Origin: a virus
Lineage: Duplodnaviria; Caudoviricetes
Strand: one strand, 5' to 3'
DNA: 62,751 nt
IMG/VR virus record: IMGVR_UViG_3300018469_000176
Span: 1 to 62,751 of that record
Positions 2,370 through 24,287 of this stretch are shown piece after piece. The notes below the pieces were generated by a model. The model was not told the origin of the DNA. It did not search any database and worked only from the letters and a program-made list of their open reading frames with translations. Made by a program: the position numbers and the translations under genes. Each line of letters starts with the position of its first letter. The stretch's first letter is position 1.

Positions 2370-3344
2370 TCACCTGTTCCACGAGTAGACACGCTCGGCC
2401 CCCAGGAGCGGGGCGTCCGCGGGGCCCTTCACGTACGGCGCGATCCACACCGGCCGATGATCCTTGATCGAGGGGTACCACTGCTGCCGCCAGTGCCCGC
2501 GGTTGATCCACCGATGATGATATTCCCGCGATGTCCCCGTAACGGGCCTCGACTCCGGATCGGGATTCCGTAGCGAGATCACTCGCACGGTCCGCGCGTC
2601 GGCGGTGTCCGCCACGCCCGCGCGATCGAGCCGGCGCCGGGCCGCCCGATCGGGGTGCTCCGTGCGCTCGACCACCAGCCGCTGACGCATCAGATTCCAG
2701 GTCGCAACCAACCGCACCGACACCACGCCCGGAAACCAACGCCACATCTCCGGGTCGTCCAGATCAACCTGCTCCGGATCGGGAAAGTAACAATCCTCTG
2801 GTGGCGCTACCTGCCAAGGCATAAACACCGTCCCGAAGGGTACGAACGCAGGTACAGTGCCGTCCTCGCAATAAATCGGGTCCGCCATCGACTGTGTAGT
2901 CTGATAACGCTGATACGACGCGCCATCCATAAAGGGAAACACTATCGCACCAATTGGACCCTTGTCCTTCACCACCATCGTGCTCCACAAGACGAGCCAC
3001 TGAACACCGTGTAACGGTCTGCCGTACACGACCAGCCCATAGAGCGCAGGCATATCAGCGAGGGAAAAACCCGTAGGAGGCATCGACGGCGCAGCGGCAT
3101 CTATTAACTCCGCGAACCCACCACCTATGTAGTTAAGGTTACCATCTTCAAGCGCCTGCCCCGCGCAGCGGATAACTGATTCCACAGCCACATTCATCCT
3201 CGCATCCGTATATGGCTGCTCCTCCATGGAATACCAGTCCTGCATCGTCCACTTGGCAAAAATACAAAGCATAGTGCCAACCCGTACATCGTCTAGCAAA
3301 CGCTGACGCAGCTCAGGAAGATCCCGCGGACCTACAGAAATCAC
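2370..3344 (-). CDS. Hypothetical protein with C-terminal RGHWR motif
   Basis: HRWINRGHWRQQWYP...WIAPYVKG; 5' part visibly lower GC. Confidence 0.7.
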   Translation of the reverse strand: MISVGPRDLPELRQRLLDDVRVGTMLCIFAKWTMQDWYSMEEQPYTDARMNVAVESVIRCAGQALEDGNLNYIGGGFAELIDAAAPSMPPTGFSLADMPALYGLVVYGRPLHGVQWLVLWSTMVVKDKGPIGAIVFPFMDGASYQRYQTTQSMADPIYCEDGTVPAFVPFGTVFMPWQVAPPEDCYFPDPEQVDLDDPEMWRWFPGVVSVRLVATWNLMRQRLVVERTEHPDRAARRRLDRAGVADTADARTVRVISLRNPDPESRPVTGTSREYHHRWINRGHWRQQWYPSIKDHRPVWIAPYVKGPADAPLLGAERVYSWNR

Positions 3345-3357
3345 GAAACCACCCCAT

Positions 3358-4119
3358 TCACGCCGCGTAGCTCCTGGCGATGATCAGGCACATCTCGTGG
3401 TACTGCTCGTGGGTCCAGCGAGTGCCGCAGCGGGCGCACTCCACGGTCAGCGTGCCGTTAGCTTGGGTCAACGTCTGCGTCTGGCATCTCGGGCAGGGCG
3501 CCGGCTTGCGGGTGACCAGCTCGGTGCGGGCGGCGAGGATCCGGACCAGCTCGTGCAGCCGCAGCAGCGCCAGCGCACCGCCGAGCCCGTCCACGGACTG
3601 GGTCAGCCAGTACCCGGCGGGGTCGATCACCGGGGACCCGTCGGCGGCCCACACCGGCTGCTCATAGAAACCGGCTGAGAGCCACGTAGCCCAGTTTCGC
3701 GTCAGAACCCCCACCCCACGGCTGATGCGCGCTCCTGGGCGGCTCTGGGCGGCTGCACGGCGGTCCCAGGGCCCGATGGCCCCCGCCCAGAACTCGACCT
3801 CGTCGTCAAGGGCGACCATGAGCGCCTCCACGGCCACCCGGATCGGGATCGGCCGCTCCCGCGTCCCCGAGAGCCGCTCGCCCATCCCGTTGCCGGGCGT
3901 GGTGCCGAGGATGGTGTGCAGCTCGGCGTAGTCCATCGGGAGCTCGCGCACGGCTTGCCGGACCGTGGTCTCGCAGCAGCGGCAGAGTCCGTCCTCGGTC
4001 TCCAGCAGTGCCCCGACCCGGGCGGTGGCGTCGGTGCCGGGGATCGGGAGCCGCTCGTGGTCGGGGCAGCGGCCGGCGCGGCGGCAGCGTCGGGACAGGT
4101 CGATAGCGGCGTCGATCAT
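3358..4119 (-). CDS. Zn-finger phage protein
   Basis: N-terminal Cys cluster, C-terminal CPRC...CARC; AAGGAG RBS. Confidence 0.7.
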   Translation of the reverse strand: MIDAAIDLSRRCRRAGRCPDHERLPIPGTDATARVGALLETEDGLCRCCETTVRQAVRELPMDYAELHTILGTTPGNGMGERLSGTRERPIPIRVAVEALMVALDDEVEFWAGAIGPWDRRAAAQSRPGARISRGVGVLTRNWATWLSAGFYEQPVWAADGSPVIDPAGYWLTQSVDGLGGALALLRLHELVRILAARTELVTRKPAPCPRCQTQTLTQANGTLTVECARCGTRWTHEQYHEMCLIIARSYAA

Positions 4120-4130
4120 CAGGCTCCTTC

Positions 4131-4382
4131 TCAGAGGCTTCCGGGGCACTCGGCCACGATCTCGTAGACGTCCACGGTGATGAGCCGGTTGCTCGCGGGG
4201 TCGCGCCACTGGCGGGGCCCCACGAGGATCGGCTCCCACAGCACGGTGAGCAGGTTCTCGGCGGCCATCTCGGCAGCCTGCTGGCGGACCGACTCCAGCA
4301 TGTCCTCCTCGGTCGCCGTGCAGCCCGCGACGTGGCGGACCAGCACCTTCATCACCACCACGTGCGGCTCGTGCGCGCTCAC
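4131..4382 (-). CDS. Hypothetical protein
   Basis: GTG overlaps polymerase stop; 83 aa. Confidence 0.6.
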   Translation of the reverse strand: MSAHEPHVVVMKVLVRHVAGCTATEEDMLESVRQQAAEMAAENLLTVLWEPILVGPRQWRDPASNRLITVDVYEIVAECPGSL

Positions 4383-7300
4383 GCCGCGTCCGCCCAGGCG
4401 AAGGACGGCCCGGACTCCGCCGGCGCGGCCACGATCGGCACCCCGCGCAGCTCGCCGGCCATGCACTCGACCAGCGTCACCACGGCCTGCTCGGCCTCGG
4501 CCTCGGGGACGGCGACCACCAGCTCGTCGTGCACGGGCAGCAGTGTGCAGTGCCCCCACGGGGTATCGCGCCAACGCACCAGCGCATCCACCAGAAGTTC
4601 GCGCGCCGTGCCCTGGATGCAGTAGTTGGGCCCCTTGTGCGGGTACCGGCGGGGGAGGTGGATGATCCGCCCGGCGGTGGTCTCGAACTGGGTGTGCCCG
4701 GCCTTGATTCCCGCCCGGACCGTGGCGGACCAGGCGCTGAGCGTGGGCAGCATCGCGTCGAGCGAGTCCACCATGGACGCCGCGATGGCCTGCGAAGTAC
4801 CCATCTGCGCGGCCAGGGTGGGCACCGCACCGCCGTAGATCCGGCCGAAGACCCCGCGCTTGACCATGTACCGATCGTCCTTGGTCGCCTCGGGGCCGAA
4901 GACCTGCCGGGCGACCTCCCAGTGCAGGTCGCGCCCGTCGGCGATGAACTGGCGCAGCACCGCGTCCCCGGACAGCGCGGCGGCCACCCGCAGCTCCACC
5001 CCGGAGAAGTCCGCGGAGATCAGCAACTGGCCGGGGTCCGCGGTGATGCAGGCCCGGATCCCGCCCACCCGGGACAGCTGCTGCAGGTTCGGTCGAACGC
5101 AGGACATTCTTCCGGTGTCCGTCCCCAGGGTGTAGATCGTCGGCCGGGCCCGGCCGTCCCCACGGCACAGCTCGGCGTAGGGCCGCAGGAACAACGAGAG
5201 CGCGGTCTCGTGGTGACGGTGCTCCAGCACCGCGCGGGCGAACGCGCCCAGCTCGCCCTCGGCCTTGGCCAGCGGCTCCAGCGCGCCCTTGGCCACCGAG
5301 GGGCGGCCGGTCTTGGTCACCGGCAGCCGGGCGTCCAGGCGCAGCGCAACCTGCCCCACCTGCGCGTCGGAACCGGGGTTGTCCACGCCGAACGCACAGA
5401 CCGCCGCGGTGGCCTGGGCCAGCGCGGCGGTGTGCGTGGCGGTGAGCTCGGCGACGTGCGCGGCGTCCAGGGCCACCCCCACGTCGGTGACCCGGGCGGT
5501 CATCCGCTGGGCCAGCCGCTCGCGGGCCAGCACCGCCGGGGTGGGCTCGGGCAGCACCCGGGCCAACGCCGCGGTGTCAAGCACGTCGGCGGCGGCGTAG
5601 CGGGCCATCGTGGCGCACCGGGAGTCGACCTGCGCCCAGCCGGAGCGCTCGATCGGGGTGGTCACCTCGGTCTCCTTGAGCCAGCCGCCGACCTTGAACA
5701 GCGCGGTGCGCGCGGCGTCGGTGGTCGGGGTGACCGCGGTGTCGCCGAGCACCGCCGGCGCGAACTCCTTGAGCCCGGTCGAGTCGTTGCCGGTGGACGC
5801 GGGGTCGGCCAGCTTGGCCGCGATCACCGTGTCGACCATCCGGTCCCAGCCGGCCTCGATGTCGAGCAGCCCGGCGTGCGCGAGCGGCACGAGGTCCGCG
5901 GTGGCCGAGAAGGCGTGCAGCCTGCCGGCCTCGGCGAGCAGCTCCCGGATCGCCTCGGCGTGGTCGATCGGGTGGAAGACCGCGGCGGCCACCTCGTCGC
6001 CGAGCTGCACGGTCCGCAGCCCGTAGTGCACGTGCCCGATCGGGTAGCCGGTGGTCTCGACGTCCACGGTGATCCCGCCGGTGGTGCGCCCCGCGGCCGA
6101 GCGGACCACCGCGGCGGCCTGCTCGACGCTGGTCGGGATCACGTGCAATTCGGCATCCACTACCACCGGGAGGGTCAGGATCTCGCCGGCCGCCGCCGCG
6201 ATGGCGTCGAGCCGGGCCTGTGCCTTGGCTGCCGCGTCGGCGACCCGCTTGGCCTCCTTGAGGATCACCCGGGCCTCGGCCTTGGTGATGCCCCGTTCGT
6301 CGGCCATCCGAGCCACCGCGGTGTTGGTGACTTTCCGTGACGGCGCCGGCCCCTCGGGGAGATCAACAGGCGGTTCTGGCGGGTCGAGCGGGCTGGCGGG
6401 ACGATTTTCCGGTCCCGCCAAGTCGGATCGTTGCAGGTCAGACCCGGTTTTGGAGGGTGTTTTCGGCGGGCTGGCGGCTTGTTCCCTAGGGGTTGCTGGG
6501 GATTCTGGGAGTACTAGGCTATTTGGGGGGTGTGTGTTTTTTTCTCCTGTTTTCCTAGTAAAACTAGCCAACCCGCCAACAGTACCGTCGAAAACGTAGG
6601 GGGAGCTGCGGTGATCTTTTTTGGCGGCTTCGGGATCCGACCCGCCAGAACCCGCCTCAGACCCGCCAGATTCCTTGATCGTCCCGGTGACCCCCTCGGC
6701 TCCACGGACCACGTGGCGGGTTGGCAGCGGCTCCCAGGGCGCGATGCCCGCCGGTCCGCTCAGCACGGACAGTGGGCGGTGCCACTTGCCGTTGATCTTC
6801 TCCGAGGGGTAACCCATGTCGGTGAGGGTCCGACCGAACGCGGTGATGGTGGCGACCGACATCCTCCGGTACACCGGGCTGCGCTGGTGCCACTCGGCGA
6901 AGTGGTTGTAGAGGGTGCGACCGGGCGTGCCCGGATCGGCGGGCACCGTGCAGTCCTCCACCCACTCGCGCACCGGGTCCTGGGCGTGCGCGACCTCCTC
7001 GGCCATCCCCCGGATGGTGATCGGGGCAGCCGAGAGGGTGGCGGTGGTCTGGTCGGCCAGCCATGCGGCGGCCTCGCGCATCATCGCGGCCAGGATCCCG
7101 GGCGCCTCCGCGGCCAGGGTGGCACGGTCCAGGCGCGCCCACAGCGGCGCGACCGTGGCCTCGGGCGCGTTGCAGGGGATCAGCCGGATCCGGGCGCGCA
7201 GCGCGGGGTCGGTCAGGGTCGGCTCGGTGTTGGTGGTCATCACCAGGGTGTGGGTGGGGGCGAAGGTGACCGGGTTGCCGTTCATCGGGCGCGCGGTCAT

Positions 7301-9184
7301 GGACCCGCCGCCGGTGAGCTGCTTGAGCCGTTCGGTGGCGTCGTGCCCGCGCTTGGGTCCCTCGTCGATGAAGCTCAGCCGGCGGCCCTTGAGGTCGTAG
7401 ATGATCGCGTCGTGGTCCCGGTTGTCGCCGAGCAGCTTGGCGTTCGCGGCGTGCCCGTAGGAGCCGACGGTCTGCAACAGGAACTCGATCAGTGAGGTCT
7501 TCCCGGAGCGCTCCCGGCCGTAGAGCATGGGCACCACCGCGGTCGGGTAGCCGGTCAGCGCCACCGACAGCACGCGCAGCGCCCAGGCCCGGATCTCGGG
7601 GTCGGGCAGCACGCCGGCGAGGAACGCGTCCCAGGCCGGGGTCGGCACGTCGGGGTTGGGCGCGCACCGCGCGGTGTGCAGGTGCGGGGTGTTCGGGTCG
7701 ATCCAGTACGCCGGGGTGGGCACCTCGCCGCTCTCCCGCAGGTTCCACGGCACGCGCCCAGCCCAGAGCACCTCGGGGTTGGTGTCGAGCTCGGCCACCT
7801 TGAGCGTGGCCGCGTTGTCCGACATCAGGATGTCGCGCAGCTTGCGGGTGACCTTCCCGGCGCCGGCCGAGGACAGGAACATCGCCCGGCGCACGGCCTG
7901 CCAGTGCCCTTCGGTACGCTCGCCGGCCGCCGCCGGGATCGGGGTGGAGCCCAGCGGCATCAGCTCGGCCAGCGCGGCCACGATCCAGCCGGAGAGATCC
8001 TTCGGGTCGGCCACCCACGCGTCGGGCTCGCGTTTGATCCACAACCCGGCGTCCTGGGCGAAGCGCAGCACCGGGAACATGCGCCCGGCCACCTCCTTGG
8101 CCAACCCCTGGTCGCTGCCGTCTCGGCTGGGGTCGAAGGGGTAGTCCGGGCTCAGCGCGGTCCACACGTTCCACGGCGGGTCCGGGGGCGCGTCGGCGGG
8201 CTCCTCCTCGCCCTCCTGGGCCACCGCCTGGGCCGCCGCGGAGAACTGGGCCTCGTCCTCGCGGGTGTAGACGTAGAACGGTCGCTGCGAGCCGTCATCG
8301 AGGCCCTGGCGGATCCAGAGCAGGTCGTCGGTGTCCGGCGTACCCCAGACCCCGCTCACGGCCGCACAGAGCCGTCCCTCGGCCTCGTCGCGGTCCAGGA
8401 AGCCGCCGCCGACGTAACCGCCCAGGGTCATCGACGCGCGCAGCAGCGCGTTGCGGAACCCGAGCCCGCCGACCGGGTTGTAGGTCGCGACCTCGGCGAG
8501 CTTCTCGTCCATCGCACGGTGCGCGGCCTCGGCCGACTGCGGCTCTCGGGAGAGCACGAACGTCCGCCACCAGTCCGGGCCGCCGACCAGCGCCCCGACC
8601 GCGGTGCCGGCCCGGAGCTCCCGGACGTGCGCGGCCAGCGTGAGCCCGCTGGTGTCGCCGCCGGCGCGCAGCGCGTCGAGGTCCGGCGGGGTGATCCAGC
8701 GGTAGGCCGTCGGCTCGCCGGTGACCTTGGACGGGCGCACCGTGGGGGCGATGTAGGCGAACCCGTGGGAGGTGCCGTCGGGCAGCCCGCCCTTGAGGTC
8801 GATGCCCGGGTAGACGTTGTCTCGCGAGCCGGCCTGCAAGCTGGCGATGAACGAGTGCACCCCACCGGACGGGGTCGTCGCGGTGCCGTAGGACAGCGGC
8901 GGAGCCTCACCCAGCGCGGCGACGTCGGCGCCGTTGCGGAAGTCGAAGTCCACCAGGTCCAGGCCGTGGCCCATGACCGCGCACAGCGCCATCCCGGGCT
9001 CCCAACGGTCCACGATGGACGGATCGGCGGGGATCTGTTCCCAGCGGTTCGGCCGCAGGAACCCGGTCTTGGACGCGGGGTCGGGGTCCGGGAAGGCGAT
9101 GAAGATCGGGACGCCGGCGCGGGCCAGCTCGCGGGCGATGTCGAGGGCCTGGAGCTGGGCGGCATCGAGCTCGGTAGTGGTCAT
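4379..9184 (-). CDS. Fused Prim-pol / SF3 (D5/P4-like) helicase / 3'-5' exonuclease / family A DNA polymerase
   Basis: Prim-pol LVDFD and TPSGGVH; Walker A GRERSGKT, Walker B FIDE, motif C MTTN; Exo VDVETTG and YAAAD; PolA ADFSGVELR, RYMVKRGVFGRIYG, VHDEL. Confidence 0.9.
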   Translation of the reverse strand: MTTTELDAAQLQALDIARELARAGVPIFIAFPDPDPASKTGFLRPNRWEQIPADPSIVDRWEPGMALCAVMGHGLDLVDFDFRNGADVAALGEAPPLSYGTATTPSGGVHSFIASLQAGSRDNVYPGIDLKGGLPDGTSHGFAYIAPTVRPSKVTGEPTAYRWITPPDLDALRAGGDTSGLTLAAHVRELRAGTAVGALVGGPDWWRTFVLSREPQSAEAAHRAMDEKLAEVATYNPVGGLGFRNALLRASMTLGGYVGGGFLDRDEAEGRLCAAVSGVWGTPDTDDLLWIRQGLDDGSQRPFYVYTREDEAQFSAAAQAVAQEGEEEPADAPPDPPWNVWTALSPDYPFDPSRDGSDQGLAKEVAGRMFPVLRFAQDAGLWIKREPDAWVADPKDLSGWIVAALAELMPLGSTPIPAAAGERTEGHWQAVRRAMFLSSAGAGKVTRKLRDILMSDNAATLKVAELDTNPEVLWAGRVPWNLRESGEVPTPAYWIDPNTPHLHTARCAPNPDVPTPAWDAFLAGVLPDPEIRAWALRVLSVALTGYPTAVVPMLYGRERSGKTSLIEFLLQTVGSYGHAANAKLLGDNRDHDAIIYDLKGRRLSFIDEGPKRGHDATERLKQLTGGGSMTARPMNGNPVTFAPTHTLVMTTNTEPTLTDPALRARIRLIPCNAPEATVAPLWARLDRATLAAEAPGILAAMMREAAAWLADQTTATLSAAPITIRGMAEEVAHAQDPVREWVEDCTVPADPGTPGRTLYNHFAEWHQRSPVYRRMSVATITAFGRTLTDMGYPSEKINGKWHRPLSVLSGPAGIAPWEPLPTRHVVRGAEGVTGTIKESGGSEAGSGGSDPEAAKKDHRSSPYVFDGTVGGLASFTRKTGEKNTHPPNSLVLPESPATPREQAASPPKTPSKTGSDLQRSDLAGPENRPASPLDPPEPPVDLPEGPAPSRKVTNTAVARMADERGITKAEARVILKEAKRVADAAAKAQARLDAIAAAAGEILTLPVVVDAELHVIPTSVEQAAAVVRSAAGRTTGGITVDVETTGYPIGHVHYGLRTVQLGDEVAAAVFHPIDHAEAIRELLAEAGRLHAFSATADLVPLAHAGLLDIEAGWDRMVDTVIAAKLADPASTGNDSTGLKEFAPAVLGDTAVTPTTDAARTALFKVGGWLKETEVTTPIERSGWAQVDSRCATMARYAAADVLDTAALARVLPEPTPAVLARERLAQRMTARVTDVGVALDAAHVAELTATHTAALAQATAAVCAFGVDNPGSDAQVGQVALRLDARLPVTKTGRPSVAKGALEPLAKAEGELGAFARAVLEHRHHETALSLFLRPYAELCRGDGRARPTIYTLGTDTGRMSCVRPNLQQLSRVGGIRACITADPGQLLISADFSGVELRVAAALSGDAVLRQFIADGRDLHWEVARQVFGPEATKDDRYMVKRGVFGRIYGGAVPTLAAQMGTSQAIAASMVDSLDAMLPTLSAWSATVRAGIKAGHTQFETTAGRIIHLPRRYPHKGPNYCIQGTARELLVDALVRWRDTPWGHCTLLPVHDELVVAVPEAEAEQAVVTLVECMAGELRGVPIVAAPAESGPSFAWADAA
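6368..6670. other. Putative replication origin inside the replicase linker
   Basis: AT-rich core about 6520-6625 with CTAGT-AAA-ACTAG; repeated CCCGCC(A) units in both orientations; about 19-bp inverted repeat at 6368-6386 / 6638-6657. Confidence 0.55.
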
Positions 9185-15806: not shown

Positions 15807-15980
15807 ATGAAGATCATCGACCTGACCGGAACCGAGTTCCACCGGCGACTGCGTAGTGCTGCGGCCGAGCTGACCGCGGACCCCGTCAAGCGAGACCAGC
15901 GCCGGCGCGCGCACGACCAGCAGTGGAGGCGCTGCGCGCACGGCAACAACCCGGCCGACTGCTGCGGGACGCCGCGATGA
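15807..15980 (+). CDS. Hypothetical protein
   Basis: GAGGAG RBS; CAHG...CC tail. Confidence 0.6.
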   Translation: MKIIDLTGTEFHRRLRSAAAELTADPVKRDQRRRAHDQQWRRCAHGNNPADCCGTPR

Positions 15981-16246
15981 AGGTCATCCCCCGCAGCCAC
16001 ACCCGGAAGATCCAGGCGATCAAGGACAAGAACCTGGTCTGCACGGTCTACAGCGAGAGCGACGACTTCAAGGGCCGCGAAGTCGATCCGAAATACGCAT
16101 GGGAGGCGCTGCGCCAGTACACCTTTGCCCGGCTGCGCGACTACGAGGACGGTAAGCGCTGGGTGGTCCGGGTGCACGGCAACCTGTGGTATGACCTGGC
16201 CGTTTGCCAGACGCCCGATGATCTGCCATCGTCGCCCGATGTGTGA
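15977..16246 (+). CDS. Hypothetical protein
   Basis: ATGA overlap, 89 aa. Confidence 0.65.
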   Translation: MKVIPRSHTRKIQAIKDKNLVCTVYSESDDFKGREVDPKYAWEALRQYTFARLRDYEDGKRWVVRVHGNLWYDLAVCQTPDDLPSSPDV

Positions 16247-16261
16247 ACCCGGACCCGTTGC

Positions 16262-16483
16262 GTGAGCGACGAGTTGATCCCCACCTCGGAGGTCGCCACC
16301 CGGCTCGGGCTCGCCCGCAGCGGGGTGTCCAAGGCCCTGCATCGGATGGGGATCACCGCGGCCAGCGCGCAGAGCGGCCGAGCCGGTGAAGACCTCTGGT
16401 CCTGGCCCGAGATCCAGCGTCGGTGGACCGACCCGCAGTACCGACCCGGCCGAGGCCACGTCCGTCAGGAGCCCACCCCGTGA
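16262..16483 (+). CDS. Small HTH DNA-binding protein
   Basis: IPTSEVATRLGLARSGVSKALHR. Confidence 0.7.
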   Translation: MSDELIPTSEVATRLGLARSGVSKALHRMGITAASAQSGRAGEDLWSWPEIQRRWTDPQYRPGRGHVRQEPTP

Positions 16484-16665
16484 AAGACGCACCCCTGATC
16501 GACAACCTGGAGGGCAACCTCTACGTCGACACGCTGCTCAACGTGCGCTCCATGGCCCTGCTCGCGGCCACCATCGGGTACGCCGGCAACAACATGCGCA
16601 TCGGCACGATCTTGACCGCCGCGGAGGAGTTCGAGAAGTGGCTGCTCCGTGAGGAGCCCACGTGA
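16480..16665 (+). CDS. Hypothetical protein
   Basis: AGGAG RBS, GTGA overlap. Confidence 0.6.
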   Translation: MKDAPLIDNLEGNLYVDTLLNVRSMALLAATIGYAGNNMRIGTILTAAEEFEKWLLREEPT

Positions 16666-17231
16666 GCCGGCACTGGCACGACGGGGTGAGCACGGCCCCG
16701 CCCGAGCCCGAGGGTCCGAGGCGACCGCGGCGGGTGGTCGTGGTCGTGGTGCTGGCCGTGGCGTCCGCGGCGGTGGCCGCCACCATCAGCGCGGTGTCGT
16801 TGACCCGGATCGCCGGCGACTCACTCGGCTTCCCGGACTTCCTGGAGTGGACCTTGACCGGGGCCGTCGACATCGGCGCGGCCACCGGCGCCGTGCTCTG
16901 GGTGACCGCGCGGGACCGTGACCGGCTGCGGGGGCGCTGGCTCAACATCTCCTGCTCCTCGGTGGCCGCGATCGGCGTCGGTCTCGACCACGCCAGCAAC
17001 GCCGCGCCCGGATGGGCCTGGGCCTGGGTGGCGTTCGCGATGGGCGCGTTCCTGCCGGCCCTGTCGACCTGTCTCATCCACGTGCTCGCCCACCTGGTCA
17101 CCGACAACGCGGCCCCGGCCGTGGACGTGACCACCAACGGGCACGTGCTCGACCCAGCGGCCGAGCGCAAGGCCGCCGATGCTGCTCGCAAGCGCAAGGC
17201 ACGCGCCGATCGCAAGGCTGCGGCGGCGTGA
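16662..17231 (+). CDS. Four-TM DUF2637/Spd-like membrane protein
   Basis: Four hydrophobic helices, W...G.VD and P.....H pattern; upstream of TraB-like gene. Confidence 0.6.
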   Translation: MSRHWHDGVSTAPPEPEGPRRPRRVVVVVVLAVASAAVAATISAVSLTRIAGDSLGFPDFLEWTLTGAVDIGAATGAVLWVTARDRDRLRGRWLNISCSSVAAIGVGLDHASNAAPGWAWAWVAFAMGAFLPALSTCLIHVLAHLVTDNAAPAVDVTTNGHVLDPAAERKAADAARKRKARADRKAAAA

Positions 17232-17255
17232 CCCGACAACCGAGGAGCGCACCTG

Positions 17256-17402
17256 ATGGAGAAATCCCGACGTCCCCGCCACTTCCTGTCCACCGATGAC
17301 CAGGAAGTGGCGTGGTGGGTGATCTGGCGCCGACGCACCTGGGCGGCCTGGGTAGCCCTGGCCAAGGGCAGCGGCCGACACCGCCGCCCGGAGGCTCAAT
17401 GA
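17256..17402 (+). CDS. Small hypothetical protein
   Basis: GAGGAG RBS; 48 aa ending GRHRRPEAQ; ATGA overlap; not in ORF track. Confidence 0.5.
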   Translation: MEKSRRPRHFLSTDDQEVAWWVIWRRRTWAAWVALAKGSGRHRRPEAQ

Positions 17403-17722
17403 GTGCACCCGACTTCCATCCCCAACGTGTGGATGATGCTGTGGACAGCTCCGTCGACGACCGACCCCTTCCCGCGCCGACCGATCAGGTGGTGCGTCCG
17501 CTGCGGGCGACCGCGGCGACCCCGCAGCGCATGGGGATGCGGGAGAACGCGGCGTGGATCCTCGCGCCCGTCGTCCTCGGCATCATCACCGGCACGACCA
17601 TGAACCTGGCCGGGGCGAATGCGCTCTACATCGCTGGCGCCCTGTTCCTGATCGCGGTGCTCACCCAGCTGACCTGGTCTCGGTTCCGGTACCTGCGGCG
17701 GATCCGGAAGGCGAAGAAGTAG
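17399..17722 (+). CDS. Two-TM membrane protein
   Basis: Two TM segments and basic C-terminus. Confidence 0.65.
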   Translation: MSAPDFHPQRVDDAVDSSVDDRPLPAPTDQVVRPLRATAATPQRMGMRENAAWILAPVVLGIITGTTMNLAGANALYIAGALFLIAVLTQLTWSRFRYLRRIRKAKK

Positions 17723-17725
17723 ATC

Positions 17726-19627
17726 ATGTCCAAACGGCGCCACGTCACCGCATCCGACCTGCCCGGGCTCGCGGGGTCCTGGGCGCTGCGGAAGCTATGG
17801 AAATGGCGCGGCGTGCTCATCCCGATCTGGCTGGCGATCAGCCTGGCCATGGTCGGGACCTTGGTCAACGCGCTGTGGCCGACGTGGTGGCCGGCGCCGA
17901 TCTCGCTGGCCCTGCTCGCCGCCGCGGTGATCTGGTTCGTCGGCGAGCACCTGTCCGGGCCGTGGCGCAACGTGTGGCTGTGGCTGGTCCCCTCGGCCCT
18001 GGACGACGGACGCCGTGGGGTGCTCGACCGACCCACCGAGCGGGCCTACCTCGCGGTGCTGCTGACCCTGTGTGGGGCCTGGACATCCCGGCTGGTGCAG
18101 GACGGCTGGTCGGACCCGCTGTGGTACGCCCTGCTCGCCGGGGTGCTGGTGCTCGGGGCGCCGTGGTGGTGGCACCGACGCCTGCGCCGCTCGGTCAACC
18201 GGTTCGTCCGCCGCTGGCCGGCTATCGCCGAGCGGATCAAGGGGTTCGAGAAGTCCACGGTGCGGCTGCTCCCCGAACAGTCCACCCGCAAGGTCACGGT
18301 CCTGTCGGTCAAGCTCGCGCCGACCAAGACCATCGAGGACGTGGGCACCACACTGCTGCCGCTGGCATCGGGCTTCGGCCTCCGCGGCGGCGCCTGCACG
18401 CTGGCCAAGGACGAGAACTCGGCCCGGCACGTGACGCTGCGGATCGTCCCGCGCAACCCCTGGTCCAAGCGGATCGCGCACCCGTGCCCGCCGATCGGCA
18501 GCCTGGACCTCACCCAGGACGAGCTCACCGTGGGCACCGGGGTGCTCGACGACGCCACCGAGCAGCGGATGGCGCTGTTGCACTGCACCGGGGTCATCGG
18601 CCAGCGCGGGAGTGGCAAGTCCGGGATGATCGAGTCCCTGCTGATGTGGATCACCGCGGCGGAGCCCAGGCACTACGCGCTGCTGGGCATCGACATGGCC
18701 CACCTCGCCACCCTCGGCGTGTGGCAGCCCGCGTTCGCCTACCCCATCGCCGGCACGATCGACGCCGCGCGCAAGCTGCTGCAGGGTCTGTTCGCGCTCG
18801 GTGAGTACCGGGAGGAGGAGCTGGCCCGGCGCAAGATGGCGGACCCGAACTACGGCAACGTCCTGCGGATCGGCGCGGAGTTCCCGGTGGTGTTCGTGCC
18901 CATCGACGAGCTGCCGGCGCTGGTCGTGCAGGGCGGCTCGTCGGTCATCACGGCGCTCGGGCAGATCGCGCAGCGCTTCCGCAAGGTCAACATCTTCTTG
19001 ATCCCGGCCGGGCAGAACCCGACCGAGCACGACTTCGGATCCACCGAGTTCCGCGCGCAGTTGGAGAACATCATCGGGCTGTTCCTCGACGCGCGCCAGT
19101 CCCAGACGCTGTGGGGGGAGGAGCGCAAGCACGGGTGGGCGAGCAACCACCTGGCCCCGTTCACCCACCTGCTGCACTCCCGGGTCGGGCACACCACCCC
19201 GCGAGTGGCCCAGGGCTACTACGTGTCCCCGCGCATGCGCGCCCGGCGCCTCGGTGAGCTCGCCCACCTCGGCGACCGCGGGATGCTCGACACCGGCTCC
19301 ATGACCGCACTGGTCGGGCACACCAACCCGGGCATCGACGACGGCAAGTCCGGCACCACGGTCGCTCCGCAAGCACCCCCCGTGCTGCACGCTGTGCCTG
19401 CGCTGCCGGCCCGCCCGGCGTCGTCGGCGGAGTTGGACGACAAGGTGCTGCGCGAGCTCCCAGCGCGCCACCAGGGCTCCGTAGGGGCCACCGCACTGGC
19501 CACCCAGCTCGGGGTCAGCCGCGACGCCGTCACCCGCTCGCTGGGCCGACTGCGCGTTCAGGGTCGGGTGGTCAAGGTCGACCGGGAGTGGGCGCTGGCT
19601 CCCACTCAGCGAGTGGACAGCCCATGA
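17726..19627 (+). CDS. traB: FtsK/SpoIIIE-family TraB-like DNA translocase
   Basis: Four N-terminal TMs, Walker A GQRGSGKS, Walker B FVPIDE, RFRKVNI arginine-finger region, AGQNP, C-terminal winged HTH. Confidence 0.8.
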   Translation: MSKRRHVTASDLPGLAGSWALRKLWKWRGVLIPIWLAISLAMVGTLVNALWPTWWPAPISLALLAAAVIWFVGEHLSGPWRNVWLWLVPSALDDGRRGVLDRPTERAYLAVLLTLCGAWTSRLVQDGWSDPLWYALLAGVLVLGAPWWWHRRLRRSVNRFVRRWPAIAERIKGFEKSTVRLLPEQSTRKVTVLSVKLAPTKTIEDVGTTLLPLASGFGLRGGACTLAKDENSARHVTLRIVPRNPWSKRIAHPCPPIGSLDLTQDELTVGTGVLDDATEQRMALLHCTGVIGQRGSGKSGMIESLLMWITAAEPRHYALLGIDMAHLATLGVWQPAFAYPIAGTIDAARKLLQGLFALGEYREEELARRKMADPNYGNVLRIGAEFPVVFVPIDELPALVVQGGSSVITALGQIAQRFRKVNIFLIPAGQNPTEHDFGSTEFRAQLENIIGLFLDARQSQTLWGEERKHGWASNHLAPFTHLLHSRVGHTTPRVAQGYYVSPRMRARRLGELAHLGDRGMLDTGSMTALVGHTNPGIDDGKSGTTVAPQAPPVLHAVPALPARPASSAELDDKVLRELPARHQGSVGATALATQLGVSRDAVTRSLGRLRVQGRVVKVDREWALAPTQRVDSP

Positions 19628-19887
19628 GCGGCGACCCGGTGGGAACCTGGGTGGTGCTCGGGCTAATCTGGCTCGCGCTGTACGTGGCTGTGTGTGCGTG
19701 GTTTCCCTATCGCAAGTGCCGTGCCCCGCGGTGCGAGCGAGGCCGGAAATACTCGCCGTTCAGTGGGCGCGACACCAAGGACCGACCCTTCCGACCCTGC
19801 GGGCGGTGTGGAGGATCGGGTCTACGGGTGCGGTTAGGCCGCCGCGTCTACGAGGTACTCAGTGCCGCCCGCGAGGAGGATGACTAA
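19624..19887 (+). CDS. Membrane-anchored DnaJ-type Zn-finger protein of AICE transfer clusters
   Basis: TM, then WFPYRKC...C and CGRCGGSG; ATGA overlap with traB. Confidence 0.7.
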   Translation: MSGDPVGTWVVLGLIWLALYVAVCAWFPYRKCRAPRCERGRKYSPFSGRDTKDRPFRPCGRCGGSGLRVRLGRRVYEVLSAAREEDD

Positions 19888-19948
19888 CCCCCCGGGACCC
19901 CGATTTCCCCATGCCCTTTTCCCCGAACAGGAATGAGCTCCCCTCACC

Positions 19949-20380
19949 ATGGCACCCGTCTCGCCCCAGACCCCGGCTACCTTGACTCGTGACCATTTGT
20001 TGTGCGAACTCGTTGAACGGGTCATGAGCCCCGCGCGCATCCGGCCCCGCCTCTACGGTGATCTCAGCAGTAAGCGGGCGCTGGCGGTCGCGTTCCAGAC
20101 CCTGCAGCAGCTGTGCCACGAGGCTCAGGTCAGCGAGGTCGACCTGGATCTCATCGAGGTCACCGACGCCACCCCGGCGCTGTTCACCATGCTCCGGCGG
20201 CTCGATGTCGAGCTGCAGCGCTCCGGTGGCCGACTGCGCATTCGCGGGGTGAGCGACGCGGTGCTCATCGCCATGGACGACCCGGCGCTGTCGCTGGCCG
20301 ACGCCGTGATGATGTACCGCTGCGCGCACGAGGTCTACGTCGTAGTGGACCCCCCTCCGGACGACGTTATCGCAGGTTGA
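19949..20380 (+). CDS. STAS-like (anti-anti-sigma) protein
   Basis: RLYGDLS, VDLDLIEVT, GGRLRIRGVS. Confidence 0.55.
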   Translation: MAPVSPQTPATLTRDHLLCELVERVMSPARIRPRLYGDLSSKRALAVAFQTLQQLCHEAQVSEVDLDLIEVTDATPALFTMLRRLDVELQRSGGRLRIRGVSDAVLIAMDDPALSLADAVMMYRCAHEVYVVVDPPPDDVIAG

Positions 20381-20391
20381 ACCATACGGTA

Positions 20392-20419
20392 TTGCATGAT
20401 ATCGTGCGGTCGTTACACT
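20392..20419 (+). promoter_or_regulatory. Sigma70-type promoter with palindrome
   Basis: TTGCAT-16 nt-TACACT; imperfect palindrome GCATGATATCGTGC over -35 and spacer. Confidence 0.5.
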
Positions 20420-20455
20420 ACCCGTCAGCGCCACCCACCCGCTAAGGACACCGCC

Positions 20456-20827
20456 ATGTCCCTCTCGATCGACGCCGTGCGTCTGCACCGCGTTTCCACT
20501 CACCGCACCCGCGTGTTCCGCCGCGACAACGGCAAGATCCTCGGCTATCTCGATCTGATGGAGGAGCCCAAGCACGTCGGCCGAGCACGCCAGCGCCACT
20601 ACCTCGCCACTCCCGCGCACTGGGCCTTCCTCGGCACCCAATCCGATGACGGCATGCCGGGCGACCAGGTGCCGCGTCGGCTCCTGCTTCCGGTACCTGG
20701 TATTCATTCATCGCACGCCGATGCCATCTACGCGCTGTTGCGCCATCTCGACGCGCAGCGTGCGCCCGGCGTGGGGCACCCGCCTCACCCGGATGTCGTC
20801 ACTCTCGCTCCCAAGGAGACTGTGTGA
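20456..20827 (+). CDS. Hypothetical protein
   Basis: AAGGA RBS, 123 aa. Confidence 0.65.
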   Translation: MSLSIDAVRLHRVSTHRTRVFRRDNGKILGYLDLMEEPKHVGRARQRHYLATPAHWAFLGTQSDDGMPGDQVPRRLLLPVPGIHSSHADAIYALLRHLDAQRAPGVGHPPHPDVVTLAPKETV

Positions 20828-21234
20828 GCCTCACTACGCTCGCTCCACCCCCGCCGACTGTCCGACCCACCTCGGTGTTCGGGCCACAGCTACCCACCAT
20901 CACCGACTACAAAGCCGCTGCCCAACGTGGTGCGTCCCTGCTCGACCAGCACCGCCCGGACTGGGCCCGCTCGATCCACCTGCAGAACCTCAGCCTTGGC
21001 GACCCCAACTACTGCGTGCTCGGGCAACTGTTCTTCACCTACGGCCTCGGGCTGACCACGCTGTTCGGGCCGAACATCGTGGAGAGTCACCGCGGGACTG
21101 ACCTACCCACCTGGTACGGCTTCGACAGCGCCATGGAGCACAACTTCGAGCTGGACCGCGGCGTCTTACCCGGGTTCCGTGCCCTCACCGACATGTGGGC
21201 GATCGAGGTCGCCGTCCGCAGGATGGGTGTCTGA
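20824..21234 (+). CDS. Hypothetical phage protein
   Basis: AAGGAG RBS; GASLLD..RPDW...CVLGQL. Confidence 0.7.
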   Translation: MSLTTLAPPPPTVRPTSVFGPQLPTITDYKAAAQRGASLLDQHRPDWARSIHLQNLSLGDPNYCVLGQLFFTYGLGLTTLFGPNIVESHRGTDLPTWYGFDSAMEHNFELDRGVLPGFRALTDMWAIEVAVRRMGV

Positions 21235-21734
21235 TGACCGAGAAGAAATCCGTGCGGCTGGTCGAGCCCGGAGTGGCCCTGCCGTCGATCCAGGGCGAGC
21301 AACTGATCGCCTCCGGGCACGCCATCTGGGCCGACCAGGCCGAGGTCGACGCCTACGTGGCCCAGGCCTCGGATGAGGTACTCGCGTGCCGATCCCGCGG
21401 CCGGCACACCTACGAGATGCTGAGCAAGACCGAGCGCATGCGGTTCGAGGGGGTCACCCCCGAGGGATTCCTCGTCCGCCGGATCCTCTGCGGCGTCTGC
21501 GAGAAGGTCTTTCGAGTCGAGGAGTGGGACGTCCGGCACCGACGGGATGTGGTCACGGCCATGTTCCTGGTGCGGGCCTACCCGAAGTACAAGAAGGGCT
21601 ACCTGGGCAAGTCCGGTCAGGGCAGGATGCGGCCCCGGGCGATTCAGAGCGCAGCGGGCACCACGGCGATGCGCGGTGTCAGCTTCCGCCAACTGCGCCG
21701 GGAAGCCGTCGAGAACGCCAAGGCGTCGGCGTAG
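21234..21734 (+). CDS. Zn-binding hypothetical protein
   Basis: CRSRGRH...CGVC; TGATG overlap. Confidence 0.65.
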   Translation: MTEKKSVRLVEPGVALPSIQGEQLIASGHAIWADQAEVDAYVAQASDEVLACRSRGRHTYEMLSKTERMRFEGVTPEGFLVRRILCGVCEKVFRVEEWDVRHRRDVVTAMFLVRAYPKYKKGYLGKSGQGRMRPRAIQSAAGTTAMRGVSFRQLRREAVENAKASA

Positions 21735-21736
21735 CC

Positions 21737-22096
21737 ATGGCCCGGCGGCTGACCATCATCTGCGACCTGGACGAGCGGGAACCGGCGTCCGAGCACGCGT
21801 TCGGCCTCGACGACTCCGGCTGGAAGATGGACCTGTGTGACGAGTGCGCGGCCGAGCTACGCGAGGCCATGGACCAGTGGATCAAGCTGGCCACGCGCAC
21901 GAGAGGTCCCAAGCGCAGGCCCGGCGGGAACCCGGCCGAGGAGCGGGTCCGCACCGACCCCAAGGACCGCTGGGCGGTCCGGGCGTGGGCAGCCAATGAG
22001 GGTATCGAGATCCGGCAGAACGGGCAGATCCCCCGCGAGGTGTGGCAGCGCTGGCAGGACGCCGGTTCACCACGGCCCGCCAGCGACGTCGCGTGA
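21737..22096 (+). CDS. lsr2: Lsr2-like protein with altered AT-hook
   Basis: FGLD...MDLC dimerisation domain; VRAWAANEGIEIRQNGQIP DNA-binding domain. Confidence 0.85.
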   Translation: MARRLTIICDLDEREPASEHAFGLDDSGWKMDLCDECAAELREAMDQWIKLATRTRGPKRRPGGNPAEERVRTDPKDRWAVRAWAANEGIEIRQNGQIPREVWQRWQDAGSPRPASDVA

Positions 22097-22425
22097 GATC
22101 ACGGCGGGCCCGCGAGCAGGCGGTGGCCCTCTACCTCAAGGGGGACACCGCCGCCGAGATCGCGGTCCAGCTCGGCTGCAGCGCGGACACCGTGCTCCGC
22201 TGGCTACGCGACGCCGGAGTGCCGCTGCGGCGACCGGGCCGGCGCAAGCGGCGCGACGTTGACACCCAGAAGATCGTCAAGCTCCGAGAGGAGGGCCACG
22301 GCTGGTACAAGATCGGCCAGGAGGTGGGGATGTCCCACAGTGCGGTGCGGTCCCGCTACCTCCAGCATGAACAGCACGTCGAAGTCCATCGCCAGCGAGC
22401 GCACGCTAACCGAGAGGACGAATGA
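22093..22425 (+). CDS. Tandem HTH DNA-binding protein
   Basis: AAEIAVQLGCSADTVLRWL and WYKIGQEVGMSHSAVRSRY. Confidence 0.8.
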   Translation: MRSRRAREQAVALYLKGDTAAEIAVQLGCSADTVLRWLRDAGVPLRRPGRRKRRDVDTQKIVKLREEGHGWYKIGQEVGMSHSAVRSRYLQHEQHVEVHRQRAHANREDE

Positions 22426-22673
22426 TCATGACCACCACGCTGGACCAACTCAACGAGTTGACCATCCTGGACCACACCGGCGACAAGACCATCGAGTGGA
22501 ACCCGCGCGACCCGGATGAGGTCAACAAGGCCCGCCTGGAGTTCGCCAAGCAGAAGGCCAAGGGCCACCTGTCCTACCGGCTCGACGCCGACGGGAACCG
22601 GGGGGCGGTCATCCGGGAGTTCGACCCGACCGCTCGACGCATTGTGATGGCACCGCAAACCGTCGGCGGCTGA
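22422..22673 (+). CDS. Putative ubiquitin-like (beta-grasp) protein ending in Gly-Gly
   Basis: 83 aa; beta-beta-alpha-beta-beta-beta pattern; ends IVMAPQTVGG-stop. Confidence 0.55.
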   Translation: MIMTTTLDQLNELTILDHTGDKTIEWNPRDPDEVNKARLEFAKQKAKGHLSYRLDADGNRGAVIREFDPTARRIVMAPQTVGG

Positions 22674-22674
22674 C

Positions 22675-23331
22675 GTGCCGTGGGTGCGGCCCCCGACAAT
22701 CACCTGGGCCAACACCTCCACGAGCACGGCCACGGTCACGGTGAGGACGGCCAGCAACAGCACCACGACCGGTATCTACACCGTGGACGCCGGCAGTACC
22801 TGGTACTTCGAGCCGAACCCACCCCTGCACCCGGGGGACCACCTCGTGCTCACCTACGGCGAGCCGGACCCCCGGGAGAACTGGGGCTGGGAGTCGCGTC
22901 AGGTGGGCAACGACGACATCACCTGGGAGGACGCTGAGCAGGTGCGCGCCCTGTATACCGAGCGGCGGCAGGCCCGGACCGCGGCGGTCGACAGAGCCGC
23001 CGCCACCCTGCTCGGGCTGCTCAACGAGGCGCAGCGGGCCAGCTACGAGGCGGACCGCACGTTCCTGGTCGTCGGCTCGGAGGGCGGGCTGTACCGGATC
23101 CGGCCGGGGTCGATGGGCAACGTGGACTGGTTCGACCCGACCGAGGTCGAGCCCCGCCGACCCGCCGGCCAGCTCTGCGCGCACCCGGTGCTCCACGACG
23201 GCGAAGGGCACCTCCCCGACCCCGACGTGGCCCTGGCCCAGCTCCTGCACCTGACCACCGACGAGCCCGGGTGGCTCCGCCGGGCGAACGTGCACGCTGG
23301 GAGGGCTCCCCGACACCCCGTGGCGGCGTGA
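22675..23331 (+). CDS. Uncharacterised Cys/His protein coupled to the GG protein
   Basis: Starts 1 nt after GG-protein stop; FLVVGS.GGLYRI, LCAHP, LPDPDVALAQ, TTDE. Confidence 0.7.
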   Translation: MPWVRPPTITWANTSTSTATVTVRTASNSTTTGIYTVDAGSTWYFEPNPPLHPGDHLVLTYGEPDPRENWGWESRQVGNDDITWEDAEQVRALYTERRQARTAAVDRAAATLLGLLNEAQRASYEADRTFLVVGSEGGLYRIRPGSMGNVDWFDPTEVEPRRPAGQLCAHPVLHDGEGHLPDPDVALAQLLHLTTDEPGWLRRANVHAGRAPRHPVAA

Positions 23332-23546
23332 TGTTGCATCAGACCACTGCCATCTACCAGACCCGGCTGACCGCCTGGAAGCCCACGTGCACCTGCGGCT
23401 GGGTGGGTGAGCTCGTCGACGCGATGTCCACCGACCCGCTCGACAGCCCGGTGCAGGCCGCACTGGCCCAGGGGGTCGCGCACGCGATGCACGCCGAGGG
23501 GGCCATCGACTGGGACGTCCCCTATCGGTGGATGGCCGAGCGATGA
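23331..23546 (+). CDS. Small hypothetical protein
   Basis: CTCGW motif, overlapping start. Confidence 0.55.
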   Translation: MLHQTTAIYQTRLTAWKPTCTCGWVGELVDAMSTDPLDSPVQAALAQGVAHAMHAEGAIDWDVPYRWMAER

Positions 23547-23710
23547 CCAAGCTCACCCGGGCCAGCATCGCCGGCGTGTTCGCGATGGTCCTGTCGGTGG
23601 CCTGGTACGCGGTGTGCGAGGCCTTCCACTGGTCCACTTTCGCGATCTTCTCCGGCGCTATCGCGATCGGCGGCGGGGTCGGCGCTGCCATCGTGGTGGC
23701 CTGGGAATGA
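23543..23710 (+). CDS. Small membrane protein
   Basis: Two hydrophobic segments, ATGA overlap. Confidence 0.6.
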   Translation: MTKLTRASIAGVFAMVLSVAWYAVCEAFHWSTFAIFSGAIAIGGGVGAAIVVAWE

Positions 23711-23913
23711 GGACCCAGTTGAACCCCCGCTCCGACGCCGAGCGTCGATACTGGGGCCAGTTCCTCGGCTGCCCGGACTGCGGGATGGTCGCCGGCGAGC
23801 CATGCCGTGACCTGCGCCGCCCGTGGACGGACACCATCACCTCGATGCCGCACAAGAACCGGCCACGCAAGCGCCGAAGACCGAAACGGAACGGGAGGAA
23901 GCACCCGATATGA
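23707..23913 (+). CDS. Small Zn-finger protein
   Basis: CPDC...GEPC...PH..R, basic tail. Confidence 0.6.
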   Translation: MRTQLNPRSDAERRYWGQFLGCPDCGMVAGEPCRDLRRPWTDTITSMPHKNRPRKRRRPKRNGRKHPI

Positions 23914-24287
23914 CAATGATTTTCGGCAGGCTGTGGGATGCGCCGATCTGCGACGACGCGATTAAGGTGCCGACCCCGGTCCACGTGCACTGCCTGTCCT
24001 GCGCCGAGCGGATCCTCGACGGCGACCGGGGGTTCCTGCACCCGACCTACGCCGAGCGGATGGAGCCCAAGTACATCGTCGCCGGCACTGGGTCTCGGCT
24101 GCTGACTGCCGCGCACCGGGAGTGTCAGATGCTGCACGAGGTCGGGCACATCGTTGGGGTGTGTCGGTGCACCGACTGGGACACCAACTCCCGGGAGGCC
24201 GCCCTGGAGTGTCTGCGCCGCGTCGAGGCCGGCGACCTGACCCGGGCGATCCGGGAAGCCCAGGCAGCCCGGGGCGTGACCAGCTAG
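23910..24287 (+). CDS. Cys/His-rich hypothetical protein
   Basis: CLSC, HREC, H...CRC; GGAGG RBS. Confidence 0.65.
   Translation: MTMIFGRLWDAPICDDAIKVPTPVHVHCLSCAERILDGDRGFLHPTYAERMEPKYIVAGTGSRLLTAAHRECQMLHEVGHIVGVCRCTDWDTNSREAALECLRRVEAGDLTRAIREAQAARGVTS

Follow-up and report, generated by a model that had tools for sequence, protein, structure and literature searches.

Can a single phage gene encode an entire replisome, and if it does, what is the long, poorly conserved linker between its helicase and its exonuclease? The question is raised by a 62,751-nt stretch of DNA from an uncultured, siphovirus-like soil phage (Caudoviricetes; IMG/VR record IMGVR_UViG_3300018469_000176), referred to here as the window. 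A first-pass annotation had placed one unbroken 1601-aa frame at 4379-9184 and assigned it primase, helicase, exonuclease and polymerase activities. The frame was borne out with exact coordinates, on the minus strand (left unstated before), and the four activities are supported by profiles, folds and invariant residues. What had been overlooked is that the linker is chiefly a DNA element, an array of short repeats (iterons) around an AT-rich core, and most likely an origin. Taking both parts together, we consider it probable that the gene is a one-chain replicase and that its linker DNA (6372-6752) serves as the replication origin of the phage.

One frame encodes four replication activities

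The ATG-to-stop open reading frame (ORF; protein P0001) and its domains are laid out as follows.

4379..9184, minus strand: whole replicase ORF; its ATG overlaps the stop of the upstream ORF as ATGA; supported by GC content at third codon positions (GC3) and by full-length homologues
8660..9142, minus strand: catalytic core of the prim-pol, an archaeo-eukaryotic primase (AEP), ~aa 15-175; AlphaFold2 (AF2) model, Foldseek, invariant D79, D81, H110 and D129
8213..8644, minus strand: helical domain after the AEP core, ~aa 181-324; model helices at 181-324, with 3m1m aligning over 350 columns
7049..8065, minus strand: D5_N-like region and superfamily 3 (SF3) helicase, ~aa 374-712; DUF5906, profile and fold; Walker A G561-K562, D607-E608, N652
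6764..7021, minus strand: C-terminal helix/strand domain of the helicase module, ~aa 722-807; order H-H-E-H-H-E-E (H, helix; E, strand) in the model; candidate iteron binder
6305..6748, minus strand: indel-rich, poorly conserved linker, rich in P, S, G and T, ~aa 813-960; protein alignment, GC3 0.46-0.72
5561..6124, minus strand: 3'-5' exonuclease, aa 1021-1208; PF01612 below threshold; invariant D1041, E1043, D1097, Y1196 and D1200
4430..5434, minus strand: family A DNA polymerase, aa 1251-1585; PF00476, PDB matches, phrog_17

Length alone is weak proof of this ORF, because in this DNA of 70% GC the opposite strand, too, has an ORF of 603 aa there (4529..6340). The GC3 of the replicase ORF is 0.92-0.93 overall, and 0.84-1.0 in each 150-nt window outside the linker.

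The N-terminal domain is an AEP primase-polymerase, similar to pRN1 ORF904 by its modeled fold. Residues 1-340 had no Pfam family at E ≤ 5 (the PF09250 cut-off was not reached), and a profile of the N-terminus found only a chance match among PDB sequences (E 0.34). An AF2 model of these residues, built from a 13-sequence alignment, had a predicted local distance difference test score (pLDDT) of 80. Its four best Foldseek matches were all pRN1 ORF904 prim-pol (3m1m at the top, with 9aam and 1ro0 among the structures matched; E 2e-5 to 1.2e-3, probability 1.0), and the next were RepB', cyanophage S-2L PrimPol and CRISPR-associated Prim-Pol (CAPP). D79, D81, H110 and D129, which we take to be AEP motifs I-III (an acidic pair, a histidine and a further acidic residue), do not vary in the 13-sequence alignment, and D79 and D81 are also invariant in 34 full-length homologues. 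In PHROGs, phrog_1156 'DNA primase' spans residues 15-796. Sister forms that match only from residue ~325 on have a canonical PF09250 Prim-Pol N-terminus (63-79 bits against a cut-off of 22.8); the whole clade is therefore AEP, SF3 and PolA.

The helicase is SF3 and D5-like, as judged from sequence profiles and a structural model. DUF5906 (Pfam) covers residues 554-656 with 39.6 bits (cut-off 27.6), and the region has weak VapE-like and D5_N Pfam matches. Its sequence profile matched C962R of African swine fever virus (ASFV; E 1e-15), D5 (0.014) and, weakly, the 7ola chain of PriRep5 from the Staphylococcus aureus pathogenicity island (SaPI) SaPI5 (0.036). The AF2 model of residues 330-815 (pLDDT 90) matched the ASFV C962R PrimPol and poxvirus D5/E5 in Foldseek with E values of 3e-18 to 1e-13. 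Invariant across the 34 homologues are G561/K562, D607/E608 and N652, which we read as the Walker/SF3 motifs. A hexameric ring and 3'-5' unwinding would be expected from the structural relatives. By its model and by its position, which matches that of the winged helix of D5/P4 alpha and SaPI Rep, the domain at ~aa 722-807 is a putative winged helix. According to the accessible part of PMC4889955, origin binding by P4 alpha and other D5-family helicases goes through a winged helix at the C-terminus.

The remaining domains form a proofreading polymerase. On the exonuclease, PF01612 scored 20.4 bits, under the cut-off of 23.6, and many homologues have PF01612 on record; D1041, E1043, D1097, Y1196 and D1200, presumably the five DEDDy catalytic residues of a proofreading exonuclease, are invariant in the 34 homologues. 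PF00476 (DNA_pol_A) covers residues 1251-1585 at 161.5 bits (cut-off 34.3), and phrog_17 'DNA polymerase' covers 1038-1596 (2.9e-90). In the PDB, the PolA part matched Taq and Klenow (4e-27 to 3e-17; E 4e-27 to 1e-16 with the chains of the apicoplast replicase PREX). D1392, K1442 and H1552-D1553-E1554, read by us as PolA palm and finger motifs, are invariant in the same homologues.

The fusion is conserved in actinomycete phages and prophages

A clustered-protein search (5.8 billion proteins) gave 449 matching clusters, the best 120 of which were listed. These are 1527-2038 aa long and 42-77% identical to the replicase, mostly with 95-100% query coverage, and 117 of these best 120 have the helicase and PolA families (PF19263 and PF00476) together on record; the fusion is genuine and widespread. 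Several matching NCBI proteins from Pseudonocardia and Actinoplanes are named only 'DNA polymerase'. A relative is encoded in 249 IMG/VR stretches, from which we kept 75 loci. One frame crosses the helicase-PolA junction in all 38 related loci that have both halves at ≥36% identity; among the loci kept there are also 13 long ORFs with only one half still aligning and 12 distant loci (~31% identity) with two genes. In L053 and L060 (among the 38) and in L082, two ORFs share the PolA part, which breaks near the equivalent of residues ~1110-1215; the helicase-linker junction stays in frame.

Neither a stop nor a frameshift in the linker, the weak points that the first-pass annotation had named, was found in the 38 loci or in a second assembly from a soil metagenome run (0 differences and 0 gaps across 5800-7300, ~10x depth). 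The latter is not independent support, because it may come from the same sample. Three further runs (X2-X4) contained just short, dissimilar pieces, and no RNA data set carrying the sequence was listed. No linker has a stop in the coding frame, and the other two frames average ~5 and ~6. The fused ORF is also intact in isolate genomes of Micromonospora, Nocardioides, Kribbella, Labedaea and Actinophytocola, where it sits far inside actinomycete contigs of 0.3-1.4 Mb, with the repeat array in the linker wherever both halves could be aligned. This location excludes an attP or attachment site in the linker. A Nocardioides contig of 101,680 nt from a metagenome-assembled genome (MAG) has two fused-gene copies ~47 kb apart (L081 and L088), equal in ORF length, linker statistics and repeat word, which may represent a duplicated prophage or an assembly repeat. 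We conclude that the AEP/SF3/exonuclease-PolA fusion is a large, conserved and uncharacterized clade in actinomycete phages and prophages.

The linker DNA resembles a replication origin

Across ~aa 830-930, the GC3 of the replicase drops from >0.9 to 0.46-0.58 and local GC falls to 45-50%. The DNA of this region has the following features.

6372..6752, unstranded: origin-like element with 10 GGCGGG/CCCGCC copies in both orientations and an AT-rich core; consensus ~TCTGGCGGGTY
6638..6670, minus strand: left array of three iterons in direct orientation, spaced by 10-11 nt; codon phases 0, 2, 0
6480..6565, unstranded: AT-rich core; GC 45-50% (60-nt windows), four CTAG, among the three lowest-GC spots of the window
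6372..6386, unstranded: one arm of a perfect 15-nt inverted repeat that brackets the core; partner at 6638-6652, 251 nt off
6536..6542, minus strand: in-frame heptamer A_AAA_AAC; in the -1 frame a stop comes 5 codons on; site not conserved in relatives

The repeats are concentrated at this one place. Of 160 GGCGGG copies in the window, 10 lie within 6378-6752, compared with at most 5 in any other 375-nt window (Poisson 7e-8; 1e-5 once all windows are allowed for), and five of the seven window copies of TGGCGGGT lie within 6377-6721. On the coding strand, one direct copy, one inverted copy, three direct copies 10-11 nt apart and one more direct copy precede an AT-rich core of ~85 nt, which is followed by one inverted, one direct and two inverted copies. 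Since the copies occupy codon phases 0, 1 and 2 and both strands, they are a DNA repeat and not a peptide repeat. The first of them start ≤50 nt from the end of the winged-helix coding sequence.

This arrangement recalls the origins of SaPIs. As described in the accessible part of PMC9371898, SaPI Rep and the fused PriRep5 are self-loading SF3 helicases with a C-terminal winged helix that recognizes iterons of 5-6 nt. Immediately downstream of rep, SaPI origins have 6-12 iterons and an AT-rich centre, with at least two iterons per side in opposite directions, and two hexamers are thought to load on either side (PMC9371898, same part). In the window linker we found two-sided opposed repeats, an AT-rich centre and a position 3' of the winged-helix end.

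Other signals were looked for in the same DNA. There were no sigma-70-like promoters within 6100-7000 and no Rfam RNA matches at E ≤ 1 in 5800-7300, and the two terminator-like matches in the linker region are within shuffle expectation. Single-stranded DNA hairpins (ssi-type signals) were rejected after four folds gave z scores of -0.80 to +0.48. A programmed frameshift was rejected as a conserved mechanism, given slippery heptamers in 16 of 37 linkers at varied places and of varied types, and so was an internal PolA start, as Met960 is not conserved.

Iteron words change together between relatives

We compared linker DNA in 37 fused genes, comprising 36 loci and the window gene (WIN). Linker GC and GC3 were below the rest of the ORF in all 37 (lowest 90-nt GC 0.28-0.60), and in 28 of them the top linker 7-mer (5-15 copies) beat every equal-sized window of the same ORF (maximum 2-6). 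Six lineage-specific core words were observed (GGCGGG, GGAGGG, GGACAG, GCAGGG, GACGGG and GAAGGG), arranged in a common layout: first two to seven direct copies at a spacing of 10-11 nt, next a single inverted copy, a conserved CAGGTCA and a T-rich stretch, then two direct copies 8-9 nt apart, the core and inverted copies. CAGGTCA was exact in 17 of 37 linkers and present with at most one mismatch in 29 of 37, versus 6 of 37 in the control orientation; it is spelled with AGG and TCA, which are rare (3.2% of all Arg codons and 4.5% of all Ser codons when linkers are excluded). A second universal inverted repeat, CAGGTCA/TGACCTG, was rejected, since its downstream half occurred in 16 of 37 linkers versus 15 of 37 for the control and support is confined to the upstream half.

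The repeat class changes 15 times (minimum possible 6) on a quick maximum-likelihood tree of helicase plus PolA, which has 31 rows after the omission of six as duplicate, split or truncated. Sister genes can have different repeats, as do WIN and L001 (GGAGGG), L002 versus L010 and L003, and L015 versus L016. The copies within a genome thus change together and often, which is how sites bound by a co-evolving protein behave. Across five sister comparisons, the putative winged helix was 55-77% identical in its last 22 residues versus 77-94% in its body. This variability is in keeping with a role of the wing in specificity, though hitch-hiking with the swapped linker would explain it equally well.

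Unfused relatives also inform on the array. L089 is a MAG contig of Pseudonocardia, 7.7 kb long. Its Prim-Pol/D5_N/DUF5906 gene (936 aa) is unfused and is followed 5 nt past its stop codon by an untranslated array built from GTGGCGG (4434-4720) with the same layout: three direct copies at a spacing of 11 nt, then one inverted and one direct copy, an AT-rich stretch and, beyond it, inverted copies at a spacing of 11-12 nt. There is no PolA downstream in L089; two small ORFs and then an HK97-type capsid gene lie within 2 kb, a compact layout that recalls a capsid-encoding phage satellite. Conversely, L038 encodes PolA alone (57% identity), with no array upstream. Among the controls and INTERMEDIATES, neither an array nor a GC dip was seen between the genes of the distant two-gene relatives (12 of 12), and an origin between those genes was rejected on the lack of an array.

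Several observations weigh against an origin in the linker. The proposed function is read from sequence. In nine of the 37 linkers no 7-mer rises above background, with weaker repeats visible in those sequences, and in 13 of 37 the core is not AT-rich and consists of a perfect alternating purine/pyrimidine tract of 17-47 nt. No clean residue-to-base code links the wing of the putative winged helix to the iteron word, and L002 and L010 share the same putative recognition helix and have different iterons. No ancestral form with polA just downstream of an untranslated origin was present among the loci found. Finally, the minimum of the cumulative GC skew lies at ~4500-5000, 1.5-2 kb from the linker; the skew largely follows gene orientation and, being confounded by it, is uninformative here.

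The linkers with alternating tracts are those of L012, L014-L017, L022, L025, L034, L036, L045, L046, L056 and L060. Their tracts are of the CA/CG type, prone to form Z-DNA, and translated as runs of His, Thr, Arg or Ala; in the rest of the same ORFs alternating tracts are ≤16 nt.

Alternative explanations for the linker and the frame

We consider it unlikely that the repeats are a different cis element, such as a repressor operator or roadblock, a partition (centromere-like) site or a packaging signal. Clustered short repeats in two orientations are typical of such sites too, the iteron binder has no clean code, and helix-turn-helix (HTH) proteins and a phrog_1568 protein are encoded nearby. 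Against them, the array, translated or not, always lies directly after the winged-helix-coding end of a primase-helicase of the self-loading SF3 type and always surrounds an AT-rich or easily distorted core; the SaPI origin design is matched point by point, at a single place and not genome-wide. Against a partition site in particular, no ParA/ParB family turned up among the window ORFs scanned, and against a packaging signal, the terminase genes are ~50 kb away.

It is quite unlikely that the frame is real and the working enzymes are nonetheless separate, produced by a -1 frameshift at 6542-6536, an internal start or proteolysis of the linker, with the full-length chain of ~172 kDa a precursor or minor form; such processing would be compatible with an origin in the linker. 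The A_AAA_AAC heptamer is in frame with a -1 stop after five codons, the linker is long, exposed and variable, and PREX is described as a polyprotein in the accessible part of PMC10201439. Set against this are the sporadic slippery heptamers (16 of 37 linkers, differing in place and type, with no A-run in the closest relative, L001), the lack of conservation of Met960, the lack of a sigma-70-like promoter in 6100-7000, and a Pfam scan of the replicase protein that found no protease or intein family.

A linker that is no more than a low-complexity, disordered spacer, in which codon usage is relaxed and the repeats are GG-rich peptide repeats without a role for the DNA, is very unlikely. The linker composition (P, S, G and T), a loose GGxxAGSGG pattern and the drift that linkers tolerate are what such a spacer would have, and this reading is strongly disfavored by the use of one DNA word in three codon phases and on both strands, by copies that change together between sister genomes, by low GC3 in 37 of 37 genomes of ~70% GC, by the rare AGG and TCA codons that build the conserved CAGGTCA, and by the untranslated array in L089.

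An assembly or sequencing artefact joining adjacent genes, suggested by the intergenic look of the linker composition and by the adjacent, separate primase/helicase and DNA polymerase I genes of Microbacterium and Arthrobacter phages and 12 distant viral contigs, is refuted for practical purposes by the fusion in 117 of the best 120 of 449 clusters (from several sources), the frame kept in 38 viral loci and in the isolate-genome loci, the stops confined to the two other linker frames, and a second assembly that agrees base for base, possibly from the same reads.

A proposed mechanism and history

Returning to the replicase with an origin in its linker, we infer a scheme from the match to the SaPI design. 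The domains run in the order AEP primase-polymerase, D5-like SF3 helicase with its putative C-terminal winged helix, linker of ~150 residues, exonuclease and family A polymerase. The winged helix (aa ~722-807), encoded just upstream of the iterons, would bind them. Two helicase hexamers would then load themselves on the two sides of the core and melt it, priming would fall to the AEP domain, and the tethered proofreading PolA would extend. Each ring would carry several polymerases, because the helicase is presumed to be a ring; the first-pass annotation had reasonably supposed as much, barring cleavage of the linker.

As for its history, a SaPI-like primase-helicase gene with a downstream origin (as in L089) was most likely joined in frame to polA (as in L038), and the origin would as a result now be translated as a spacer. 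Taken to its conclusion, this would make one ORF a complete self-specifying replicon, with initiator, helicase, primase and proofreading polymerase and an in-frame origin, an idea that we put forward tentatively, as possible and somewhat short of an even chance.

Relation to known replicases and origins

SaPIs are among the closest known systems. Alike in both are a primase, a self-loading SF3 helicase with a C-terminal winged helix (putative in the replicase), adjoining two-sided iterons and an AT-rich centre. According to the accessible part of PMC9371898, the SaPI origin is untranslated and no polymerase is encoded, whereas here the frame continues through the candidate origin into exonuclease-PolA. 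The replicase also differs in its presumed actinomycete hosts and in its AEP primase, which is pRN1-like by fold.

Among single-chain replicases, the accessible part of PMC4889955 notes two helicase-primase-polymerase fusions, gp55 of Lactococcus phage 1706 (SF3, AEP and PolB) and Pas55 of Actinoplanes phage phiAsp2 (SF3, DnaG-type primase and PolA). The former shares AEP, SF3 and a polymerase in one chain with the replicase and differs in having a family B polymerase. The latter (AY576796) likewise has primase, SF3 helicase and PolA in one actinophage chain, but it aligns only at residues 1343-1596 (33% over 263 PolA residues), and its N-terminus has DUF3854, a primase of the DnaG/TOPRIM type, where the replicase has AEP. 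Pas55 is an independent fusion, and AEP/SF3/exonuclease-PolA is a third composition of the triple fusion.

The first-pass annotation had seen an independent all-in-one replicase built from other parts than PREX, and this holds. Apicoplast PREX also has primase, helicase and exonuclease-PolA in one translation product, and its PolA matches that of the replicase (E ~1e-16; 5dku, 7sxl). It is eukaryotic and organellar, with a TOPRIM primase and a T7 gp4-like helicase; the replicase is not its relative, because the primase here is AEP and the helicase SF3 of the D5 type and not DnaB-like. The best structural matches, pRN1 ORF904, ASFV C962R and poxvirus D5/E5, share AEP prim-pol, D5_N and SF3 with the replicase, and none has PolA; ORF904 is itself a plasmid replicase. 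In Microbacterium and Arthrobacter phages (for example Nicky22 genes 42 and 43), a primase/helicase gene lies beside that of DNA polymerase I in the same order, but as separate genes with 27-28% identity to the replicase.

An origin within a coding frame has a precedent in phage lambda, whose ori lies inside the O gene, with iterons and an AT-rich region in an interdomain stretch of the initiator frame. In lambda-like phages, initiator specificity and iterons change together. Lambda O is not a helicase, primase or polymerase; it recruits host DnaB and has no sequence relation to the replicase.

Among 50,697 phage genomes, no record covers 80% of the replicase protein in one place. The first-pass annotation had allowed that the architecture might already be a characterized family; full-text searches of the literature found no such characterization, and no paper that describes either an AEP/SF3/PolA chain or a linker of this sort with an origin in it, though supplementary tables may list members. 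The accessible part of PMC10201439 gives D29-like actinophage PolAs 'no known partners' and AEP-PolA fusions only in another cluster. Like those of PMC11348598 and PMC5862659, it does not describe the AEP/SF3/PolA architecture, and that of PMC11348598 does not use 'fused' or 'fusion'. The new part would be a SaPI-type origin translated in frame as an interdomain linker.

Genomic context

The window carries genes for small and large terminase, portal, scaffold, HK97-type capsid, connectors, major tail protein, chaperones, a 1766-aa tape measure and minor tail proteins. Two ORFs upstream of the tape measure (45279-45614 and 45719-46018, minus strand) match the first and second halves of the tail-assembly-chaperone profile phrog_2624 and form the usual frameshift-linked pair. 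Between the portal and large terminase genes lies an AMIN-like domain protein (55806-56312, minus strand; PF24837, 134 bits). No integrase family turned up among the window ORFs scanned, and the contig has no terminal repeats >15 nt.

Encoded near the replicase are a helicase of SNF2 type, a nucleotide-kinase-like ORF, a 'DNA binding protein' (phrog_1568, 3358-4239) and several HTH proteins (2004-2366 and 22042-22425). A 324-aa ORF at 2370-3344 (minus strand) has low GC (0.58-0.62), a GC skew that is strongly negative and no Pfam match; it resembles a low-GC gene, acquired recently, beside the replication module. Farther away, a plus-strand block (15923-24287), made up for the most part of small genes of unknown function, includes an FtsK/SpoIIIE-like ATPase (17726-19627, plus strand; PF01580, 27.9 bits), which is unusual for the contig of a tailed phage and brings to mind the conjugative elements of actinomycetes. 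GC reaches its lowest value in the window at 27480-27620 (44%), within a 1282-aa ORF of unknown function (24430-28278, minus strand), and no obvious repeats were apparent there on reading the sequence.

Implications

So far, triple fusions of primase, helicase and polymerase have had only a brief mention, in the accessible part of PMC4889955, which names two phage proteins composed differently. For annotation, a low-GC3 dip inside a long replication gene is not to be read as a frameshift or a gene boundary. In a translated origin, the DNA element and the protein linker would occupy the same bases, with codon usage following the DNA signal. The clade would offer a concrete initiator-origin pair with natural specificity variants (WIN/L001, L002/L010/L003 and L015/L016), and a one-gene replisome with a built-in origin would suit minimal self-replicating DNA systems. 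If the idea of a self-specifying replicon is true, the gene alone, perhaps with a single-stranded DNA-binding protein, should drive origin-specific replication of any circle that carries it. Each gene copy would then carry its own start site, with the specificity determinant encoded within ~100 bp of the iterons, and the rapid, concerted switching of iteron words between sister phages would define replication-specificity groups.

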